NCBI GenBank assembly: GCA_963783885.1
Contig: CAWAPJ010000012.1
Coordinates: 1 to 64,000, forward strand
DNA length: 64,000 nucleotides
Source of the DNA: Waddliaceae bacterium
GTDB lineage: Bacteria > Chlamydiota > Chlamydiia > Chlamydiales > SLFE01
Direction of reading: 5' to 3'
The notes under the pieces were generated by a model. It was given only the letters and a program-made list of their open reading frames with translations. It was not told the origin of the DNA and did no database searches. The position numbers and the translations under genes were made by a program. Positions 620 through 50,100 of the stretch are shown here, one piece after another; the stretch's first letter is position 1, and every line of letters begins with the position of its first letter.

Positions 620-2518
620 ATGGAATTAGAAAATAATTCATTCCAATCTTCTAACTATAGTAAATTAGAGGTCCCTATTGAAGAATTTCGCATACGGGGC
701 ATCACTGTAGTCCCGATCGATGACTTATACCCGCAGCAGCTCATCAAGCCTATTTTCGATAACCTGAAGAAAAATTATCCAAATGTTTCGCTCTCAAACC
801 TCACGAATATCATCATAGACACTAATGACCGCCATATCACGATTCAAGCGAAAATCGGTGAAAAACTGGCATCCTTCAAGGTGAAAAAAGAGGGCTTGAC
901 TCCCGCTGAACAAGAGATTCTGGGCTTCACAGCTATCCCATCGACACCTCGATTTGCTTCAGCTTACTCTAGGGCAATCAGCTTCCTGACAGACAAAAAT
1001 GAATGGGAAGATGTTATTCCTCTCACCACTACTCCAAAAAAACTAACAGCAAAGGATAGACAAGATAGGGATCCTTATAGAATCATCGAAAAGCGTTTTT
1101 CCATTGGGGACGAGCTTATTGGAAAAGAAGTCATCAAACGAATAGATACTCTCACGACTTATCAGCAAATTCTCGAGGCAGAAGATGATCAACAAGAATT
1201 GAAAAAACTGAATAAATACATCGAAACCACCCAAGCCACTTGGGTCAAATCTCAGGATTTTCGATCCATATGCCACCGAGAAGGATTTAAAAAGGCTTGC
1301 GAAACCTTCCCACTTGGAGCCCCTGTAAATTTGCGGCAGCACAGCCTCGAAGATAGTGAGGGGCAAGTTGTCGAACAGATTGCCAGACTCGGAGTGATTA
1401 CCGACGTCAGCAATGGCTGGTATTCTTTGGCGGAACTCAAAAACATGGAAAGAGAGTATAGGGAAAATAACAATTTGCAATCCTTAATCTCAAAAAAAGA
1501 GGAAATTATTAATTTTCAGGAATCTCCTCCTCCTTCGGGCATTATGCAGTCAATTCTCAATTACCTTTTCAGAGTCAAAGGTAAATTAAACCGCGATCAA
1601 TACATTTCGTCTGATTTAGCCAGAGAAAAACTGCAAATCATCGAAAACGCGGGCGATATAAAACCCTTGGAAGAGCTCATTGAAGCCAGAAGAAAACCTC
1701 TGCAAAGGCAAATGCTTCAATATCTTCTCTCACAGGTATCCTCCCATCCTGATCGCTTAAAGGAGGGACAGCCTTTCAACCTATTTCACTTATCTTTGTT
1801 AAATCTTCACACCAAACACCTTGACTCAAGCGGCTGGATGCACAACGAAAGAGTCGCTTTCGAAGATATGCGGGAAATTATGCATGAATTTAGGGAAAAA
1901 AAACTCGCCTTTGCAAAAAAGGGACCAGTCATCAAAGATGATACGATCTACCTTCCTATCCCGGATATACCTGAAGGGGTCACCCTCAACACCTTTATTT
2001 TTAACTTTTCCCCTCAGGGACACACGAAAAACGACAACCCACAGCTTGAATTTAACCAGCAGGAAATGGGAAAGCTAAGAGAGACTCTTTCGAACTTTCC
2101 CTTTGAAGAACTAACCAAAATTTTTCAATCTCCACGAACCGGTTACGATACTGCAGAAGAATTTTCTATGACAGTGACCGACTATCTTCAAGAACATAAA
2201 AATGGCGCCTTTGGCAATGGATGTAATTCCGGAAAAGATAGGACGGGATTCAATTCTGCCAGAATCATGATGAGACGATTATCGAAAATTCTGCCGACTG
2301 AAACCAACCCCTATGAATCACAAATTCTGAATAAAAACGACCCCGCGACCCTCGTTGCCATAGACAATCTACCAACAAGTTTGGTGTTGAAATTGGATCC
2401 CCGCACGGTTGCTAAACGCGATATTGCGGGATTTAAAAGAATTGAGACAATTGGTTTCCTCTTCCGCTCATGCTTTGCAGGGGCAATTCAGGAAATATTC
2501 AGAAGGTTGAGCCCATGA
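620..2518 (+). CDS. Putative phosphoinositide phosphatase effector (SopB/IpgD-like CX5R)
   Basis: 632 aa, with C-terminal motif GCNSGKDRTG (codons near 2222-2248) matching the CKSGKDRT active site of SopB/IpgD/INPP4. Confidence 0.7.
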   Translation: MELENNSFQSSNYSKLEVPIEEFRIRGITVVPIDDLYPQQLIKPIFDNLKKNYPNVSLSNLTNIIIDTNDRHITIQAKIGEKLASFKVKKEGLTPAEQEILGFTAIPSTPRFASAYSRAISFLTDKNEWEDVIPLTTTPKKLTAKDRQDRDPYRIIEKRFSIGDELIGKEVIKRIDTLTTYQQILEAEDDQQELKKLNKYIETTQATWVKSQDFRSICHREGFKKACETFPLGAPVNLRQHSLEDSEGQVVEQIARLGVITDVSNGWYSLAELKNMEREYRENNNLQSLISKKEEIINFQESPPPSGIMQSILNYLFRVKGKLNRDQYISSDLAREKLQIIENAGDIKPLEELIEARRKPLQRQMLQYLLSQVSSHPDRLKEGQPFNLFHLSLLNLHTKHLDSSGWMHNERVAFEDMREIMHEFREKKLAFAKKGPVIKDDTIYLPIPDIPEGVTLNTFIFNFSPQGHTKNDNPQLEFNQQEMGKLRETLSNFPFEELTKIFQSPRTGYDTAEEFSMTVTDYLQEHKNGAFGNGCNSGKDRTGFNSARIMMRRLSKILPTETNPYESQILNKNDPATLVAIDNLPTSLVLKLDPRTVAKRDIAGFKRIETIGFLFRSCFAGAIQEIFRRLSP

Positions 2519-2958
2519 AGTTTCTTTGTGATCATATGCTTGTCAGACTCGGCCGCTGGCTGAGAGCCGCCGGCTATGATACGAGAATTGCCAAACCCGA
2601 CGACAATGATGCTTGGCTGATTTCTATCGCCGCTGATGAAAACCGCCTGCTCGTCACAAGGGACAAACTCATGAACGGAGAAAATCACATTTTATTTCTC
2701 AAAAGCAACTCAGTCGAGGCGTGCGCCCGGGAACTGTCAAAAAAAGCATCCGTCAACTGGCTAAAAGCACCGTTTTCACGGTGCCTTTTGTGCAACACTC
2801 CCTTTGAAATTATCCAACCCAGCGAAGCAAAAGACATCCCCGAAGATATCAAAAATACAGCCCCCGCCCTCTGGCGCTGTCCGAGCTGCCGAAAAACCTA
2901 TTGGGAAGGGAGCCATACCCAAAAAATGCTCAGGCAGCTCAAATCCTGGAATTCATAA
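2515..2958 (+). CDS. Mut7-C RNase (PIN-fold) domain protein
   Basis: FLCDHMLVRLGRWLRAAGYD, LVTRD, RCLLCN and CPSCRKTYWEGSH. Its ATG overlaps the upstream stop (ATGA). Confidence 0.85.
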   Translation: MKFLCDHMLVRLGRWLRAAGYDTRIAKPDDNDAWLISIAADENRLLVTRDKLMNGENHILFLKSNSVEACARELSKKASVNWLKAPFSRCLLCNTPFEIIQPSEAKDIPEDIKNTAPALWRCPSCRKTYWEGSHTQKMLRQLKSWNS

Positions 2959-2982
2959 AGACAATCCTTTAAACTGAGTTAT

Positions 2983-3207
2983 ATGGTTATTGGAAAATGG
3001 ATCATTCTTGCCGGTGTTGTCCTGATTGCCGTTGGATGTCTTGTGTGGGTTGGCTCGAAAGCCGGACTTCCCATTGGGAGACTCCCCGGCGACATCTCTA
3101 TCAAGGGAGAGACGACCAGCTTTTATTTCCCTATTGTCACAGGGCTTGTCCTTAGTGTGGTCCTAACCATAGTGATTAACTTGTTAATTTGGATATTTAA
3201 AAAATGA
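2983..3207 (+). CDS. DUF2905-like small membrane protein
   Basis: GRLPGDI...FYFPIVTGLVLSVVLT with two TM helices. Confidence 0.85.
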   Translation: MVIGKWIILAGVVLIAVGCLVWVGSKAGLPIGRLPGDISIKGETTSFYFPIVTGLVLSVVLTIVINLLIWIFKK

Positions 3208-18887: not shown

Positions 18888-19976
18888 ATGACATCACGGC
18901 TTTTGCACTATCCCGGGACCAAATGCCAGCCATTGCCGACTCCCGATAATATCAAAAATGAATTTCCTTTAAAGAAAGAAGTCTATACCAAGATAGCAGG
19001 CTTCCGTCAAGAAATCATCAATATCCTTCAAAAGAAGACAAAAAAGGCTCTTTTTATTGTTGGCCCTTGCTCCATACATGATACCTCCGCCGCCTATGAA
19101 TTTGCCAGTAAATTAGAGCGGCTTGCCGAATATGTCTCCGAATCGATACAACTTGTGATGCGTGTTTACTGTGAAAAACCGCGAACGTCTCTGGGGTGGA
19201 AGGGGCTTGTTTATGATCCCGGCCTCGACCATTCAAACGATGTGGCCACAGGCATTCGCCTCACACGCGAACTGATGCTTGAAATTAACCGGCTCGGAGT
19301 GGCTGTCGGAACAGAGTTCCTCGATCCCCTCACCTGCCACTATTTTCAAGACCTTGTTAGTTGGGGGTGCATAGGAGCCAGAACCTCGGCATCGCAAATT
19401 CACCGCCAGCTGGTCTCGGGTCTGCCGATGCCTGTAGGTTTCAAAAACAGCACCGACGGCAACATTCTAAACGCCGTTAACGGCATGTGTTCTGCCAACC
19501 ACCCCCAGTGCCATATTGGACTCGATGATGCGGGGCGGGCGTGCACAATGAATACCTCCGGCAACCCCAACACGCACCTTGTTTTAAGAGGAGGCGAACA
19601 CACCCCGAACTATAATCGCCCCTCCGTCGCCTACGCCCTCGAGCTTTTGGCCACACACAAACTCCCCCTCCGTCTTCTCATCGACTGCTCTCACGACAAT
19701 TCCGGAAAAGATCATGAACGGCAGCCTGAAGTCTTCGACGAGGTGGTCGAGCAAATGTGCCAGGGCAACAAAAATATACTCGGAGTTGTTCTTGAGAGCC
19801 ATCTTCATCCGGGCAAGCAAAAACACGAAGGACCTCATTCCTGCCTCAAATACGGCATCTCCATTACAGACGGCTGTATGGACTGGAATACAACCGAAGA
19901 GCTTATCCTTCGAGCCCATGTCCAGCTCTCCAAAGAAGAAGCTTCCTGCAGATCATCGCTTGCCAGCGTCGACTAA
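18888..19976 (+). CDS. DAHP synthase (class I, AroF/G/H type)
   Basis: VGPCSIHD, RVYCEKPRT, IGART, GFKNSTDG, IDCSHDNS and SITDGC. Confidence 0.95.
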   Translation: MTSRLLHYPGTKCQPLPTPDNIKNEFPLKKEVYTKIAGFRQEIINILQKKTKKALFIVGPCSIHDTSAAYEFASKLERLAEYVSESIQLVMRVYCEKPRTSLGWKGLVYDPGLDHSNDVATGIRLTRELMLEINRLGVAVGTEFLDPLTCHYFQDLVSWGCIGARTSASQIHRQLVSGLPMPVGFKNSTDGNILNAVNGMCSANHPQCHIGLDDAGRACTMNTSGNPNTHLVLRGGEHTPNYNRPSVAYALELLATHKLPLRLLIDCSHDNSGKDHERQPEVFDEVVEQMCQGNKNILGVVLESHLHPGKQKHEGPHSCLKYGISITDGCMDWNTTEELILRAHVQLSKEEASCRSSLASVD

Positions 19977-21667
19977 ATTTGGATACTGAGATCGTTAAGT
20001 GATTTGATCTTCTCTTGAACTTCTTGATAAACTTTCTCCTTTTTTCCGGCAGACTTATCGTAGATTAGACGAAGAAGTTTTTTATCCATTAAGCTATGAA
20101 GCGGTCCTCCCTCCTTATGCTCATCAAGATAATCACTGATTCCTAACTTTAAATCAAATCTACGCCAATCTTTGAATACCTTTTCCGTCATTTCTTTTGC
20201 ATTTTTAGGTTCATAATCTTTGCCAAGGTAAGTCAGATACAACGCGCCTCGAAATGCCAGTTTTGCCGATGCCCATGAACAATTGCCTGCTTTTTGGCCA
20301 TGTGTTTTAAGGCTCTCGGCAGGATTAAACTCTAATCCTAAATCCTCGTTAATTTGATGATTGAAATAAAAGAAAGTTTGCTCTTTTCGATTATTTTGAT
20401 GAAAAAGAATTGAGAGCAATTTAATAAAATTAGGAGTAATAAATTGTGGCGAATTGATCTTATAAAGCAAGAGTCCAAAATCTTTTCTAAACTCCCCTTT
20501 ATTCCCCTTAAGCAAAATTCTATCTTTTATCACGAGAGAAGTTGTATGATTTCCCCATCCGGTGGGTATAATGACCAGTTTTTTATTTTCGTATCTACAA
20601 CATTGTTTTTTAAATTTTATACCTACATTGTTCATTGCAAAAGCGTCTATAATTTCTTGCTGCTCATTTTCATCAAGATTGTGAATGTCTTGATTATTGA
20701 GTAAATATTGTTGGATAGATGATGTCAGGATAGGATAAGTGAGTATTGATGAATAACCGGTGTATGGACGGGACAGCTCGTCAGTTCCACTAATCGAAAA
20801 GCGATGAGCCAGCATCTTTTTCGAATGAAGAGTTTTTATTTGATTGAGAGCCGGTTCACTTATCATTTCAGCAGGTTTTGTATCATCGGCTAGTTCCAAT
20901 ATTTTGATAAAATATGGGATTTTCCAATAGTCTTTTGCAAAAAAACCCTCTAAGTCAATTCTGATGTTATCGAGAAGAAGTTTAGCGGTATTGATATAAC
21001 TCTTATTAAAGGCGGTTTGAACCAAACAGCTTAATTCTCTTGTCCGTTCATTTTCATCATGATAGGCACTCAAAATTATGGAAACTTTTACCATTGTTAC
21101 AAATTCTTCAAAGTAGATTTCATATTGCAAATAGGGCTTTAGTATTTCTAGCACTTTTTTACCTAGTATGCAGGAAGTTCCATCAGCAATTTGGTATATC
21201 TCTTCGATATCGCCCATTTTTTTGAAAGTTACGAACATATCGACTAAAAACTTCGCGATGGCTTCGTTTCTGAGCTTATCAGGAATTATGATAAGAGTTT
21301 TTAATAAATATCTTCTTAGATTTCTATTGGTAATTATATCTAACAACTCTTCTCTTTCATCGCTTTCCAGGGTGCTAAGAACGGTAAGAAAAATACATTG
21401 CACTCTTTCTTGAATATCAGAATTTTTGCACGCGTGGTTGTGATAAAACTTGTGAATTTGCGTTTTCAATCGTGTTAAATTTTCAACGTCTTGCTGATTA
21501 AAGCTCTGATGATGATCTTTAATCCAGGAAAAGATTTTATCTACGATATTTGGTCTTAGAAAATCACCACGAACTTCAAATGGGAGTTTGTTTACTTCAT
21601 TTTCAAACTGGTCTCTATTAGAGGCATTTGCAAGATTAATCAAAGCATGATCAATATCAACATCCAT
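19973..21667 (-). CDS. Low-GC hypothetical protein with a putative cysteine-catalytic domain
   Basis: 564 aa, with GWGNH...NKG...QKAGNCSW in the C-terminal third. Confidence 0.65.
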   Translation of the reverse strand: MDVDIDHALINLANASNRDQFENEVNKLPFEVRGDFLRPNIVDKIFSWIKDHHQSFNQQDVENLTRLKTQIHKFYHNHACKNSDIQERVQCIFLTVLSTLESDEREELLDIITNRNLRRYLLKTLIIIPDKLRNEAIAKFLVDMFVTFKKMGDIEEIYQIADGTSCILGKKVLEILKPYLQYEIYFEEFVTMVKVSIILSAYHDENERTRELSCLVQTAFNKSYINTAKLLLDNIRIDLEGFFAKDYWKIPYFIKILELADDTKPAEMISEPALNQIKTLHSKKMLAHRFSISGTDELSRPYTGYSSILTYPILTSSIQQYLLNNQDIHNLDENEQQEIIDAFAMNNVGIKFKKQCCRYENKKLVIIPTGWGNHTTSLVIKDRILLKGNKGEFRKDFGLLLYKINSPQFITPNFIKLLSILFHQNNRKEQTFFYFNHQINEDLGLEFNPAESLKTHGQKAGNCSWASAKLAFRGALYLTYLGKDYEPKNAKEMTEKVFKDWRRFDLKLGISDYLDEHKEGGPLHSLMDKKLLRLIYDKSAGKKEKVYQEVQEKIKSLNDLSIQI

Positions 21668-21984: not shown

Positions 21985-22433
21985 CTACCTCGCATATATA
22001 GTTCTTAGACCCTCAGTAATACGGGTCACTCTCGCGTCACGTTCAACTAGAAGTTTGTATGCCATGAATCTTCCTTCTTGACCTGTGTAAATTTTACATT
22101 GAATATCTGAACCTCCAACTTTACCAAGAAAACGTATCCCATACAATATAGTTTGAATAATCGGTACTGATTCAAACGCCCCAGCCATGATATTTCCAGC
22201 ACCATGTAGCACGTGTCTGCAGGAAAAGACAAACCAATCCCTTGCTGAATTTTCCGTAAACGTTGGCATCGCCGCTGGGACTAGCAACAGCACTGCTAGA
22301 GCGACAGAAGCTGTCAGCTGAACAGTGCCCATTCCCATTTTAGACCAACCGGCAGCAGTACCTATAACGGGATAGTATGATAACTCAGATAAAATTCTTC
22401 TGCTTTAAAAATACTTTCTTCAATTTGAATCAT
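21985..22433 (-). pseudogene. Small hydrophobic protein gene with a frameshift near its 5' end
   Basis: RBS GAGGTGG precedes ATG 22433 (MIQIEESIF). A frameshift near the run at 22407-22411 joins RRILSELSYYPVIGTAAG to ORF 21985-22338. Confidence 0.5.
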
Positions 22434-22630
22434 AATAAACCACCTCTTTAATAAAGATTAAATAAGAGAATATTATATTTAATTGTTTATGTAAAGAGGT
22501 AAATTTGTTATGTTGTTCCAAGAAAATTTTGGCAAAAAGCTACTGTTAAATATTCAAATCTTTTTGGCTTTGTTGCGTAATTAACCACAGAGCTCACAAG
22601 AGCGCACAGAGAGAATATGAGAGATTTGAT

Positions 22631-23575
22631 TTAAGCTGCTATTAATTCACTTTCAGGCATTCCCAGCTTTGTCATTATATTTAGTGCTTCACATTTTGCC
22701 CTTGATTCAGCCCTTTGGGTTTCCAGAGTTCTACTTCTTAAATCATTTCCAAAGAATCGTTTAAATCTAAACATGGCTGTTTCTGCAAGTGATCGACGAT
22801 GATAACCTTTCAACTTTTTCCATAATTTTCTTGCATCATCATCACCTCCTAAACCTGAAATTTCCAGCAAACTGATATTCCGCATCTTCCAAGAAGGAGA
22901 TATGTTTTCTCGAAAAACAGCATTCCTATTGGGTGGAATAATAGGAATTGAGCCGTGAACTACATTTGCAGCATAGCATCGCTTAGTATCATAAGCCCCA
23001 TCTCCATATGTGCGCTTAACTGATTTCGGCATTACCTCGAGAAGTTTTGGATACACTTCACAATCTGCAACGTTATTTTCAGTAAGAATTTCGAAAATAA
23101 TTTCGTGAGAGTCAGGGCAGACTGCCAGATGGAGCTTTCTCCATGTTCGCCTTTTACTGATTCCATGCTGCCTAACTTTCCATTCACCCTCTCCGTACAC
23201 TTTCAAACCGGTTGAATCGATTACAATATTGGTGACTTTTTTTTTCGAAAGTTTCTTCAACTCTTGCCCCAACAACTTAGCTCTGCGACAAATTTGAGTA
23301 TAAGAAGGAATCGATAAACCAACAGATAAAATCATAACAAGAGATGTCAAAAATCCTTCGAGTGCTCTCAATGGAAGATGAAAAACCGATCGAATAATGA
23401 GCGCGGTGAGAATAGCGTTATCAGAATAGAGTTTTGGACGCCCCTTTTTTCCTATTTCTTTTGGAGCCATCCACTTATTGATAGCATCTTCAGAAAACCA
23501 AACAGTTATGCTTCCCCTTTGAATAAGAGATTTGTTATAGTCGTTCCAGTTGCGAATGCGATATTTTGCCTTCAT
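22631..23575 (-). CDS. IS5-family (IS903 group) DDE transposase
   Basis: NWNDYNKSLIQRGSIT, IDSTGLKVYGEGEW, WRKLHL, GDGAYD and GYHRRSLAETAMFRFK. Confidence 0.96.
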   Translation of the reverse strand: MKAKYRIRNWNDYNKSLIQRGSITVWFSEDAINKWMAPKEIGKKGRPKLYSDNAILTALIIRSVFHLPLRALEGFLTSLVMILSVGLSIPSYTQICRRAKLLGQELKKLSKKKVTNIVIDSTGLKVYGEGEWKVRQHGISKRRTWRKLHLAVCPDSHEIIFEILTENNVADCEVYPKLLEVMPKSVKRTYGDGAYDTKRCYAANVVHGSIPIIPPNRNAVFRENISPSWKMRNISLLEISGLGGDDDARKLWKKLKGYHRRSLAETAMFRFKRFFGNDLRSRTLETQRAESRAKCEALNIMTKLGMPESELIAA

Positions 23576-23659
23576 CTTGATCCTCCAATTTGTTGCAACT
23601 AAAAATTAGAGTATTAGGTATTTGTCGGCAAGCTCGCATTCGCCCTTTTTGGAGAAAAG

Positions 23660-24067
23660 ATGACTAGTACCCACACAACTGAAGAAGCCAACCAAAAAAG
23701 AAATGACCTTTTAACAGGGGAAATCATAGGTGCTGCGATTGAAGTTCATCGAAGATTAGGTCCAGGCTTGCTTGAATCGACATACGAAACTTGTCTTTGC
23801 TACGAGTTGAACCTTGCGGGTTTGAAAGTTAACCGGCAGATACCAGTACCTATTATTTATCGTGATAAAAAGCTAGACTCAGGCTACCGGATCGATATGA
23901 TAGTGGAAGATAAGGTTATTTTGGAGATAAAATCTGTGGCCAATCTCTTGCCTGTTCATGAGGCCCAACTTCTATCCTATCTTAAGCATAATGGCGGTGG
24001 CAGAGGTTTGCTCATCAATTTCAATGTAAAACTTCTAAAAAATGGGATTAGGCGTCTAATCATTTAA
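23660..24067 (+). CDS. GxxExxY protein (PD-(D/E)xK nuclease-like)
   Basis: LGPGLLESTYE, YRIDMIVE, ILEIKS, HEAQLLSYLK and GLLINF. Confidence 0.93.
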   Translation: MTSTHTTEEANQKRNDLLTGEIIGAAIEVHRRLGPGLLESTYETCLCYELNLAGLKVNRQIPVPIIYRDKKLDSGYRIDMIVEDKVILEIKSVANLLPVHEAQLLSYLKHNGGGRGLLINFNVKLLKNGIRRLII

Positions 24068-24196
24068 TTCCTCTCTCATAATCTCTCAGTGAGCTCGGTG
24101 GTCTCAGTGGTGATTTATGCAACAACGCCAATCTTTTTTATGATTTTTTTTGGGTATACCTTACGCCAAAACACTTATTAACATCCATAGTAATCC

Positions 24197-24904
24197 TTAT
24201 ATATAATAATTATTTGATCTCCACTCAGAAAGGATGACCGATGCTGCCTGGGAGACGTTAAGGGAGTCGATTTGTCCGAACATGGGGATGTAAATCTTGT
24301 GGTCGGAGTATTTGCTGATAAGAGGCTGCACTCCCTTTCCTTCAGACCCCATAATTAAGAGTGTGTGCGAAGGAAATTGAAATTCGTAGAGGTTTTCGGC
24401 ATTTGGACCGATTTCGGCAGTGACTGCCCAATAGCCGTGCTTCTGAAATTGTTTGACTGTCTCGGCAAGATTCGAAACCTTAATTAAGTCGACAAGCTCG
24501 GATGCTCCAACGCTGGCTTTAGTGACAACCGGGGTGATGTCGGCTCCCCTGTTTTTTGACCAGACAACGGCGCCTGCGCCGAAACATTCAGCGGCGCGGA
24601 GTATGGCTCCAAAGTTTTGCGGATCGAAAATCGAATCGAGCATCAAAACCAGACTCTTTTCTTTTTCTTTTGTTAAAAACGCTTTGAGATCAAGTTTGGG
24701 TTTTTCTTTAAGGTAAGCGGCCACCCCTTGGTGGGACTCGGATCCCGCAAGTTCTGATAATTCATCTTTGCTAAGGATTTTTATTGGAATGCCCGCTTTG
24801 GAAAATTCCGGATCTTTTTTTGCGAGTAATATTTTTTGAATGCGCTCGGGGGCGGCTTTGAGCACTTCCCGAACACAATTTTTTCCCATAATCAGGTGCG
24901 TCAT
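24197..24904 (-). CDS. rlmB: 23S rRNA 2'-O-methyltransferase (RlmB/SpoU)
   Basis: HQGVAA, DPQNFGAILR, MGSEGKG and IPMFGQIDSLNVS. Confidence 0.92.
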   Translation of the reverse strand: MTHLIMGKNCVREVLKAAPERIQKILLAKKDPEFSKAGIPIKILSKDELSELAGSESHQGVAAYLKEKPKLDLKAFLTKEKEKSLVLMLDSIFDPQNFGAILRAAECFGAGAVVWSKNRGADITPVVTKASVGASELVDLIKVSNLAETVKQFQKHGYWAVTAEIGPNAENLYEFQFPSHTLLIMGSEGKGVQPLISKYSDHKIYIPMFGQIDSLNVSQAASVILSEWRSNNYYI

Positions 24905-49579: not shown

Positions 49580-49975
49580 ATGACCAGTACTCACTCAACT
49601 AATGAAGCCAACCAAAAAAGAGATGACCTTCTAACAGGTAAAATCATAGGTGCTGCGATTGAAGTTCACCGAAGATTAGGTCCAGGCTTGCTTGAATCAA
49701 CATACGAAACCTGTCTTTGCTACGAATTGAACCTTGCGGGTTTGAAAGTTAACCGGCAGATACCAGTACCTAATAAAAAACTAGACTCAGGCTACCGGAT
49801 CTATATGATAGTGGAAGATAAGGTTATTTTGGAGATAAAATCTGTGGCTAATCTCTTGCCTGTGCATGAAGCCCAACTTCTATCATATCTTAAGCATAAT
49901 GGTGGTGGCAGGGGTTTGCTTATCAATTTCAATGTAAAACTTCTTAAAAATGGGATTAGGCGACTAATCATTTAA
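49580..49975 (+). CDS. GxxExxY protein, copy 2 (12-bp in-frame deletion, RID to RIY)
   Basis: Near-identical to 23660-24067 apart from these changes. Confidence 0.88.
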   Translation: MTSTHSTNEANQKRDDLLTGKIIGAAIEVHRRLGPGLLESTYETCLCYELNLAGLKVNRQIPVPNKKLDSGYRIYMIVEDKVILEIKSVANLLPVHEAQLLSYLKHNGGGRGLLINFNVKLLKNGIRRLII

Positions 49976-50100
49976 TTCCTCTCTCATAATCTCTCAGTGA
50001 GCTCGGTGATCTCAGTGGTGATTTATGCAGCAACGCCCCTGCTCGCTCTACCTGCATTCATATCACATTTTTTTGGGCGATACTATAACATAAGCAAATT

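Follow-up and report, generated by a model that had tools for sequence, protein, structure and literature searches.

The window, a stretch of 64,000 nucleotides from a Waddliaceae bacterium, contains a chimeric element of 1564 bp (positions 22566–24129), part IS903-type insertion sequence and part GxxExxY cassette. The element belongs to the IS903 group of the IS5 family and has two divergent, intact ORFs, one encoding a DDE transposase and the other a small passenger protein of the GxxExxY family. It is a live, multi-copy insertion sequence that is mobilised in full by its DDE transposase, which generates 9-bp duplications of the target. At either end, the outermost 18 bp are an IS903-type repeat, and ~2 bases further in come three CACNGAG units of the kind typical of stand-alone GxxExxY genes, and it is this combination that identifies the element as a chimera. 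The reading we favour, with a probability of roughly 35%, is that the passenger binds these CACNGAG arrays and works at the two ends, either as an accessory nuclease or as an architectural factor.

The boundaries were read directly in the sequence. A perfect 9-bp target-site duplication (AATCTTTTT) occupies positions 22557–22565, and the same nine bases recur at 24130–24138. Inside the duplications are the terminal inverted repeats, the left one starting with GGCTTTGTTGCGTAA and the right one, read as its reverse complement, with GGCGTTGTTGCATAA. The left repeat (GGCTTTGTTGCGTAATTA, 22566–22583, plus strand) was identical to the IS903 repeat of an annotated Klebsiella plasmid copy at 14 of 18 positions, and the right repeat (GGCGTTGTTGCATAAATC, 24112–24129, minus strand) at 16 of 18. 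The inverted repeat extends ~59 bp inwards as pairs I1 (34 nt, 79%) and I3 (25 nt, 88%), which join two subterminal arms. The left arm (22586–22624, plus strand) is composed of CACAGAG, CACAAGAG, and CACAGAG with a AGAATATGAGAGA tail, and its inverted partner (24072–24109, plus strand) of CTCTCATAAT followed by CTCAGTG, CTCGGTG, and CTCAGTG. The arms of the preliminary description were thus composite, the outer ~18 bp alone being IS903-like and the inner part consisting of the three CACNGAG units.

The transposase gene (22631–23575, minus strand, 314 aa) and the passenger gene (23660–24067, plus strand, 135 aa) are separated, start to start, by 84 bp (23576–23659), and they end 6 nt and 4 nt, respectively, before the extended repeat. 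The arrangement given in the preliminary description, with IS903-like repeats and a perfect 9-bp duplication enclosing two intact divergent genes that lie 84 bp apart and end a few bases from the arms, was therefore correct. The spacer contains a block (AAAATTAGAGTATT ... GCAAG) conserved across four element lineages. A simple sigma-70 scan of these 84 bp yielded no promoter, with sites no more numerous than in shuffled sequences. The 8-mer TTTGTTGC at ~23590, short as it is, may be a vestigial internal repeat. No gene for a methylase- or antitoxin-type partner was found within the 1564 bp.

The transposase matched Pfam families PF13737 and PF01609, scored 289.6 bits against NF033579 (cut-off 140), and was 44% identical to annotated IS903/IS903B transposases over 99% of its length. 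Among 27 aligned transposases, D192 and E265 were invariant and D120 was at least 90% conserved. We take these residues to be the DDE triad, assuming the spacing Y-2-R-3-E-6-K (Y258, R261, E265, K272). The element shares with the IS903 group the family HMM, the DDE triad, terminal repeats of ~18 bp starting with GGC, and a 9-bp target duplication, which IS903 itself also generates. IS903 was confirmed to carry a transposase only, being a one-gene element of 1057 bp with 18-bp repeats and no CACNGAG units inside its ends. In contrast, the element described here departs from the one-gene, ~1.05-kb form of the group, having 1564 bp, a second conserved gene, and extended repeats; its own passenger-less relatives are ~1.1 kb long. 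To our knowledge, members of the IS5 family are seen as transposons that encode a single protein.

The genome contained nine full-length copies of the element (98.5–100% identity), with both ORFs open in 9/9 and perfect 9-bp duplications, each different, at seven of the nine. These copies bear out the earlier proposal that the gene pair moves as a unit. An empty site was present in one metagenome contig (run X4), in which position 22556 was joined to 24130 with nine shared letters. The sister genome G001 had at least eight identical copies. Depth in run X1 was ~55–63 inside the element versus 3–5 in the flanks, which fits many copies, although contig depth is not equal to copy number. In a DNA search of a plasmid collection, no record covered 80% of the element, and the matches spanned 6–11% of the query, inside the transposase gene. 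In run X20, an RNA library, a contig of 217 nt aligned to the passenger with five differences; as a single contig of a relative, it is not evidence of transcription. Two gene-less derivatives of 378 bp and 608 bp (C16 and C33) each had a perfect 9-bp duplication. Since these derivatives also moved, any role of the passenger in movement could be supplied in trans or would be dispensable.

PF13366 had 16 matches in this genome, each of them inside a copy or a remnant of the element. An older copy lies in the window at 48857–50037 (plus strand, 85–91% identity), where the preliminary description had noted a recurrence of the two-gene layout. It is indeed the same element, with the right arm and terminal repeat intact to 50037, but the copy has decayed. 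Its left end is lost, and its transposase gene is fragmented, with a 73-aa N-terminal ORF at 49275–49496 and foreign DNA inserted. The passenger ORF (49580–49975, 131 aa) has a four-residue deletion and a tyrosine in place of the invariant D79.

The passenger was assigned to its family by matches to PF13366 (E 8e-42, 142.7 bits, cut-off 22) and to the GxxExxY model TIGR04256 (E 1.3e-43, 148 bits, cut-off 35). The family is very large, with at least 8000 scored relatives, and its function is given as 'Unknown' in the one review table that lists it (PMC3424549). In 42 sequences, G36, E39, and Y42 of the GxxExxY motif were invariant, as were D79, E89, and K91. An AlphaFold2 (AF2) model of the passenger (pLDDT 81) had a restriction-endonuclease-like fold, and its top structural matches were all PD-(D/E)xK nucleases (Z 5–7.9; Foldseek probability up to 0.99), the best of which, at Z 6.9–7.9, were R.SwaI, the nuclease domain of CinB, BpuSI, Hjc, and Cas4. 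These matches (best Z 7.9) do not go beyond the level of the superfamily. In Foldseek, the model had no match at E 0.001 or better (E 0.01 or worse), and the sole outcome of a sequence search of the PDB was RelE, at E values (0.38 or worse) too high to be informative. The model, the fold matches, and the invariant D79/E89/K91 agree with the earlier assignment of GxxExxY proteins to the PD-(D/E)xK fold, and the passenger is a small predicted PD-(D/E)xK protein whose putative catalytic set is intact.

The passenger gene is under purifying selection. Its dN/dS values were 0.07, 0.10, 0.13, and 0.17 in the four of ten comparisons with a defined dS, and dS was saturated in the other six. The gene was present in every sufficiently complete element of one transposase clade, and this presence together with dN/dS values of 0.07–0.17 argues against a neutral one-off capture, the outcome that would have undermined the preliminary description.

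The distribution of the passenger was scored, together with that of the arms, at the 30 best transposase loci from 30 Chlamydiota genomes. It was present in 4/4 loci with a transposase of at least 67% identity and readable upstream DNA, namely the element itself and those of G001, G255, and G296. The element of G011 was split over two contig ends, and that of G283 was a deletion derivative. At the 24 chlamydial loci with transposases of 62% identity or less, the passenger or the arms were found in 0/24. The three complete passenger-bearing transposases formed one clade (support 100/99), and the IS-linked passengers also fell in one clade (support 95/89), the seven rows of which were six IS-linked rows and L130. 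The counts and trees thus agree in tying the passenger to a single transposase clade, and they show a single, lasting fusion of an IS903-type element with a GxxExxY cassette. Within this clade, in which a handful of lineages were readable, there was no derivative with the transposase alone. Passenger-less IS903-group relatives were plentiful, intact, and multi-copy, showing that an IS903-group transposase needs no such partner.

The CACNGAG units followed the passenger. Arms were present at both ends in 6/6 passenger lineages read and in 0/10 passenger-less relatives. The stand-alone relatives of the passenger belong to the same family, carry the same motif, and have the same layout, in which three CACNGAG units, the ORF, and three CTCNGTG units then GGTGA follow one another. 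At least three units occurred within 160 nt downstream of the gene at 66 of 77 stand-alone loci, versus 21 of 1147 background windows; a 3' flank of the same kind as the right arm was found at 59 of the 77, and flanking inverted repeats beat shuffled controls in 53 of 68. Unlike the element, the stand-alone genes had no IS903-type terminal repeats, and 79 of 80 metagenome loci had no transposase (in up to 2.5 kb of flanking DNA, depending on the extent of the contig), indicating that the basic job of the protein is independent of IS903. The CACNGAG units are the normal flanks of GxxExxY genes, now part of the ends of an insertion sequence. The presence of these triplets in both ends, in common with most of the stand-alone flanks examined, is what the comparison of sequences adds to the preliminary description. 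The central base of the units differs between the two arms of one element (CACAGAG versus CACTGAG), a mismatch more in keeping with a word recognised by a protein than with a strictly base-paired stem.

Arm triplets were also dispersed in Chlamydiota, with 121 of the 401 genomes containing them and as many as 324 triplets in a single genome. PF13366 was found in 156 of 400 genomes, and by hand count in 71 of the 82 with at least four triplets versus 85 of the ~318 others. In G022, the arms lay in a 354-bp MITE-like repeat, where 20/20 hairpins examined were in the middle of the repeat and the ends of the repeat itself were different. In G016, 12/12 dispersed arms were within a longer repeat adjoining a fragment of another IS5-family transposase; this genome also had an inserted cassette with both arms around the passenger alone. 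The location of the dispersed arms inside larger repeats in these two genomes weakened a pure REPIN-like reading of them, and their copy number may be passive.

In the mechanism that we favour, the CACNGAG arrays at the two ends of the element would be recognised by the passenger, whose part there would be that of an accessory nuclease or of an architectural factor. A second nuclease would then be placed ~20 bp from each tip, as TnsA is beside TnsB in Tn7, and selection at the level of the element would keep the passenger gene intact. We counted for this explanation the mobility of two-gene copies, the clade-wide presence of the passenger, the purifying selection, and the arms belonging to the passenger. 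Counted against it were the intact passenger-less relatives, the common stand-alone GxxExxY genes with arms, the arms in unrelated repeats, the movement of gene-less derivatives, and the generic fold matches. A broader proposal is that GxxExxY proteins would be sequence-specific nucleases with the flanking CACNGAG triplets as their sites, and that in a Chlamydiota lineage this module merged with an IS903-type transposase, the two now working on a common pair of ends. We consider this unlikely.

The closest competitor to an accessory role at the ends is a selfish or self-maintaining GxxExxY cassette that was captured a single time by an IS903-type element and rides on it, with no part in DDE transposition; selection on the gene would then reflect the cassette's own function. 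The frequency of passenger relatives that have the same arms and no transposase is as this explanation predicts, and so are the arms and gene fragments carried in other repeats, the association of triplets with PF13366 across genomes, and the canonical relatives that need no partner. However, a simple inserted cassette would be expected to have its arms directly on either side of the passenger, as it does in G016, whereas in every lineage of this clade they stand at the extremities of the element with the transposase also between them. The lack of a transposase-only derivative among the few readable lineages of the clade also counts against it. We regard a mere rider as only slightly less probable than the role that we favour.

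The position of the arms, which are inverted repeats starting 4–6 nt past each stop codon, could also suggest a device at the RNA level. In rRNA intervening sequences, a long stem is processed, and by analogy the arms might pair in read-through transcripts to give a stem that is processed or terminates transcription and so insulates the element, with the passenger being unrelated to the arms or acting on RNA. The CTCNGTG form of the arm does follow each gene of the element in the gene's own sense, and the stand-alone cassettes, inspected by eye, sat tightly between or ahead of host genes. This explanation is nevertheless improbable. The left and right arms are mismatched at the centre of every unit and are 1.5 kb apart, and because the transposase and passenger genes are divergent, neither mRNA contains both arms. 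A search of Rfam with positions 22400–24300 gave no match at E ≤ 1 except for a chance-level hit elsewhere (E 0.62), and the predicted catalytic set of the passenger is of the DNA-nuclease type. Less probable still is a cargo nuclease that raises the fitness of its carrier through defence, repair, or addiction, in the manner of a transporter IS: the best fold matches to R.SwaI, CinB, BpuSI, Hjc, and Cas4 and the purifying selection would suit it, but PADLOC gave 0 families for transposase or passenger at E ≤ 0.01 and PHROGs gave no match, leaving a defence role without support from either, the element encloses no methylase or antitoxin partner, about nine identical copies per genome are unlike what host-level selection for one function predicts, and no PF13366 match of the genome lies outside element copies and remnants.

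Several known systems resemble the element in part. Tn7 combines a DDE transposase of the retroviral-integrase type, TnsB, with a PD-(D/E)xK nuclease, TnsA, and the element likewise pairs a DDE transposase with a PD-(D/E)xK protein. However, Pfam (E ≤ 0.01) gave PF13366 only for the passenger and PF13737 with PF01609 (DDE_Tnp_1) for the transposase, which places neither protein in the TnsA or TnsB family and the element outside the Tn7-like group. RAYTs are HUH (IS200/IS605-type) tyrosine transposases flanked by dispersed REP repeats. REPIN-RAYT systems and the GxxExxY cassettes both have a small nuclease gene between inverted short repeats that are dispersed in tens to hundreds per genome, but the gene flanked here encodes a PD-(D/E)xK protein and not an HUH protein, so that the likeness is one of architecture alone. 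Like the element, transporter ISs (tIS) have the size of an IS and enclose an additional gene between their terminal repeats, and their passengers are described as unrelated to transposition (PMC3129680). The element differs from them in having as its passenger a predicted nuclease that is conserved across an IS clade and whose flanking repeats are now part of both ends. The preliminary description knew of no earlier account of the element, and our search, confined to the literature, found no description of it in print.

The element offers the GxxExxY family a testable candidate DNA target, the CACNGAG triplets. Being small and active, with clear ends and clear transposition products, it is a natural genetic test bed. 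Retention of a second nuclease over a deep divergence (transposase identity as low as 67%, saturated synonymous sites) would illustrate the way in which simple insertion sequences gain accessory functions. If the broader proposal of sequence-specific GxxExxY nucleases were true, the element would represent a two-nuclease transposase of TnsA/TnsB-like type that arose independently within the IS5 family. If the nuclease were a mere rider, there would still be a cassette of gene and repeats, widespread and unannotated, that acts as a source of repeats in environmental Chlamydiota.

The element occupies positions 22566–24129 (1564 bp) between two copies of a 9-bp target duplication, AATCTTTTT, read in the sequence at 22557–22565 and 24130–24138. 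Its left terminal inverted repeat begins GGCTTTGTTGCGTAA and its right one, reverse-complemented, GGCGTTGTTGCATAA; a repeat-finder extended the pair to ~59 bp in blocks of 34 nt (79%) and 25 nt (88%). The transposase ORF (22631–23575, minus strand) encodes 314 aa matching PF13737 and PF01609, and scored 289.6 bits against NF033579, the NCBIfam IS5 model (cut-off 140). The passenger ORF (23660–24067, plus strand) encodes 135 aa matching PF13366 (PDDEXK_3, E 8e-42) and TIGR04256 ("GxxExxY protein", E 1.3e-43). The two ORFs are divergent and separated by 84 bp. In this spacer (23576–23659), a block reading AAAATTAGAG(T/A)ATT ... GCAAG was shared with the homologous spacers of three other loci (L056, L247, and L061); it was kept across four element lineages that are otherwise 66–80% alike, and may represent a shared promoter or operator. 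A 564-aa ORF (19973–21667, minus strand) just upstream of the insertion site had no Pfam match at E ≤0.001. The host bacterium is chlamydia-like.

The transposase shared 44% identity, across 99% of its length, with annotated IS903/IS903B transposases of enterobacterial plasmids, and the terminal 18-mers of the element agreed with the IS903 repeat, GGCTTTGTTGAATAAATC, at 14/18 and 16/18 positions. By transposase, ends, and duplication length, the element belongs to the IS903 group of the IS5 family, and the sole group feature that it fails is "one gene, about 1.05 kb". The preliminary description was right that canonical IS903 has only a transposase, as one annotated plasmid copy (1057 bp, with 18-bp repeats) held no second gene or anything else inside. 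In form, as an IS carrying a passenger gene, the element resembles the transporter IS described in passages of PMC3129680. It is not a member of the Tn7-type or RAYT-type systems, to which its likeness is functional only. No description of it was found in the literature on IS903/IS5 passenger genes, on chlamydial families combined with IS terms (no hits), or on chlamydial palindromic repeats, though the element may have an ISfinder catalogue entry.

The window's genome (46 contigs, 2.16 Mb, 89% completeness) contained nine full-length copies at 98.5–100% identity. Both ORFs were open in all nine (314 aa; 135 or 134 aa) and seven were flanked by perfect 9-bp duplications, different at each site, which bears out the earlier proposal that the gene pair moves as a unit. 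Of the remaining two, one had no duplication and the other had its first five bases replaced. Perfect 9-bp duplications also flanked internally deleted derivatives of 378 bp (contig C16, with neither gene) and 608 bp (contig C33), and one deletion between 10-bp direct repeats was common to three older derivatives. The DDE transposase was shown to move everything between the IS903-type repeats, duplicating 9 bp. A contig from metagenome run X4 joined position 22556 directly to 24130, omitting 1573 bases (1564 + 9) with nine letters shared, which is the pattern of an unoccupied target; this empty site was represented by a single contig of depth 2.8, with only 27 letters on the right side. Among metagenome contigs placed on the element, several distinct flanking sequences met both tips. 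Soil and salt-marsh metagenomes (19 DNA runs) contained the element with almost no change, and the near-identical sister genome G001 carried at least eight identical copies.

The supposed second instance of the two-gene layout at 48.9–50 kb turned out to be a degenerate copy of an older lineage (48857–50037, 85–91% identity to the element), with a fragmented, interrupted transposase and no left end. Its passenger ORF was open, having lost four residues, with Y replacing the otherwise invariant D79. The foreign DNA that truncates and interrupts this copy (48295–49214) contained ORFs of 106 aa (48295–48615, minus strand) and 86 aa (48954–49214, minus strand), neither with a Pfam match, which may be remnants of other insertion sequences.

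The IS903-like part of each end comprised only the outer 18 bp. Directly inside lay an arm of three CACNGAG units at ~9 bp spacing: CACAGAG, CACAAGAG, and CACAGAG on the left, and CACTGAG, CACCGAG, and CACTGAG (reverse-complemented) on the right. Downstream of each gene's stop codon came the arm, in its CTCNGTG form, with the IS903 repeat beyond it. These units were present at both ends in all six readable passenger-bearing lineages, and absent from ten passenger-less relatives, from the 24 surveyed loci with transposases at ≤62% identity, and from IS903. Among the 80 closest passenger relatives in the metagenome collection (52–73% identity), a single one, in a deletion derivative (L131), was beside a transposase. 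Nevertheless, of the 77 loci whose downstream sequence was long enough, 66 had at least three CACNGAG-type units within 160 nt after the stop codon, 59 of them in the CTCNGYG orientation and usually ending GGTGAA; the background, from other 160-nt windows in these loci, was 21 of 1147. The typical layout was CACNGAG x3, ORF, CTCNGTG x3, and of 68 loci reaching 200 nt to either side, 53 had a flanking inverted repeat that beat 20 shuffles by a margin. Since the arms are thus the usual flanks of GxxExxY genes without a transposase, the element is a chimera, with the transposase and then the passenger in the middle, a cassette arm on each side of the pair, and an IS903 repeat outermost at each end.

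A composite end (TTGTTGC, 6–24 nt, two CACNGAG units) was found in 34 of 401 Chlamydiota genomes (26 of 212 genera), and a reversed control pattern gave no match. The examined loci were mostly solo ends or 90–260-bp miniature elements, some with the passenger 3' end. The window's genome had 16 PF13366 matches, every one of them inside a copy or remnant of the element. Inspected by eye, stand-alone cassettes from different metagenomes repeatedly lay 7–30 nt upstream of the start codons of similar host genes, whose products start MLQRFLDP..., MPEKKIRVLIAKPG..., or ...FYNRPTL.... This recurrence, in three groups of loci (L134, L135, L150, L165, L177, L189, L197, L204; L149, L154, L173, L176, L182, L209; and L168, L169, L179, L188), suggests either old conserved insertions or a site preference.

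IS903-group transposases (E of 1e-30 or better) were identified in 91 of 400 Chlamydiota genomes, and the best 30 loci, from 30 genomes, were surveyed for passenger and arms. With transposases at ≥67% identity, the passenger was directly upstream of the transposase in the window's own genome, G001, G255 (92%), and G296 (68%). In G011 (72%) the element was split over two contig ends, with the transposase on one and, on the other, the passenger and spacer plus residues 1–77 of the transposase; G283 (68%) held an internal-deletion derivative retaining both ends. At ≤62% identity, none of 24 loci had passenger or arms, and these elements were ~1.1 kb where both ends were readable. In species-representative genomes, the 80 best loci had the passenger only beside transposases at ≥68% identity. 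In a maximum-likelihood tree of 27 complete transposases, which left out G001 (identical), G255 (internal stop), and partial sequences, the three passenger-bearing ones formed one clade (100/99 support) nested among passenger-less chlamydial elements. All six IS-linked passengers likewise formed one clade (95/89 support) in a tree of 45 passenger relatives, from which one row with stops was dropped; a metagenome cassette with different outer repeats (L130) grouped with them. Passenger and arms were shown to have travelled with the transposase since a single fusion. The G255 element, 92% identical and in another family, suggests horizontal spread; lying on a 1.5-kb contig of a MAG, it could be mis-binned.

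The L130 cassette (2230–3030), at 73% aa identity the closest stand-alone one among the 80 relatives, had arms and an outer 57-nt inverted repeat (96% complementary) unrelated to IS903 ends, with no transposase within 2.5 kb. In the sister species G002 (contig C68; L033, 1870–2020), a passenger homologue (81% aa) directly after a host gene was followed by its arm and a degenerate IS903-type repeat; after exactly 9 nt came a second degenerate repeat in opposite orientation, another arm, and the contig end. The arrangement looks like two element ends abutted at target-duplication spacing.

Passenger dN/dS was calculated by the Nei-Gojobori method in ten comparisons, with synonymous sites saturated in six. 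The four unsaturated comparisons gave 0.07 and 0.10 with the genome's own two old copies, 0.17 with G002, and 0.13 with a cassette of genome G016, showing that the gene is not evolving neutrally and that selection keeps it intact. A one-off capture, with nearly all relatives lacking the passenger and its gene drifting, is therefore not what we found, because relatives of the same clade carry the passenger and the gene is not neutral. G36, E39, Y42, D79, E89, and K91 were invariant in 42 aligned relatives. The AlphaFold model (pLDDT 81) had a restriction-endonuclease-like fold; its best structural neighbours were R.SwaI, the CinB nuclease domain, BpuSI, Hjc, and Cas4 (Z 6.9–7.9), and such matches to a predicted structure assign the passenger to the superfamily and no closer. 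The superfamily table in PMC3424549 gives the function of PDDEXK_3/PF13366 as unknown, and one paper that uses the name GxxExxY mentions it in passing only. No description of the arm–gene association was found in the literature on IS903/IS5 passenger genes, on chlamydial families combined with IS terms, or on chlamydial palindromic repeats.

Of 401 Chlamydiota genomes, 121 contained the arm triplet, at up to 324 per genome (controls close to zero), and PF13366 occurred in 156 of 400. By hand count, PF13366 occurred in 71 of 82 genomes with at least four triplets and in 85 of ~318 others, figures that are an association rather than a test because of relatedness among the genomes and because every gene comes with arms of its own. 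In REP/RAYT systems, a gene is flanked by a dispersed repeat that it serves, and GxxExxY genes between dispersed arms resemble this arrangement. In the two genomes inspected, however, the many triplets lay within larger repeats. In G016, all 12 pairs examined enclosed a truncated GxxExxY gene inside a longer repeat, which continues into part of another, different transposase of the IS5 family; in G022, all 20 hairpins examined lay mid-way in a non-coding repeat of 354 bp that has unrelated terminal repeats of its own. The abundance of dispersed triplets may therefore be passive. In G016 (L302, G016:C15:32900–35400; L256–L273), a complete cassette with arms enclosing just the gene adjoined a C-terminal stretch (173 aa) of a different IS5-family transposase (...RWVVERSFAWL...). 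The same arrangement, or its truncated form, was repeated dozens of times (116 arm triplets), and may be a second, independent IS–cassette association. The G022 repeat (L304–L325; e.g. G022:C1, 862064–862416) had terminal inverted repeats …CATACGCATCAAC… and a central hairpin of CTCNGTG/CACNGAG arms.

We infer that the arms would be recognition words for the passenger, because they accompany the gene in many unrelated contexts, form arrays at roughly helical spacing, and have a free central base that differs between the two arms of one element, which fits a protein site over a base-paired stem. In this IS, a PD-(D/E)xK nuclease would then be seated ~20 bp from each tip. Our tentative reading, with a probability of roughly 35%, is that the passenger has an accessory role at the ends, in end cleavage, excision, or synapsis. 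The cassette being a rider with its own agenda is a possible but somewhat less probable explanation: passenger-less relatives do well and cassettes mostly lack a transposase, but every lineage has its transposase enclosed by the arms and, among the small number of lineages, a transposase-only derivative was never seen. That the arms act as an RNA stem or insulator is unlikely. Host-beneficial cargo is slightly less likely still, given no defence match in PADLOC or PHROGs. The mobile element on its own is of modest novelty; the main value lies in linking a huge uncharacterised nuclease family to a specific repeat, inside a tractable active element.
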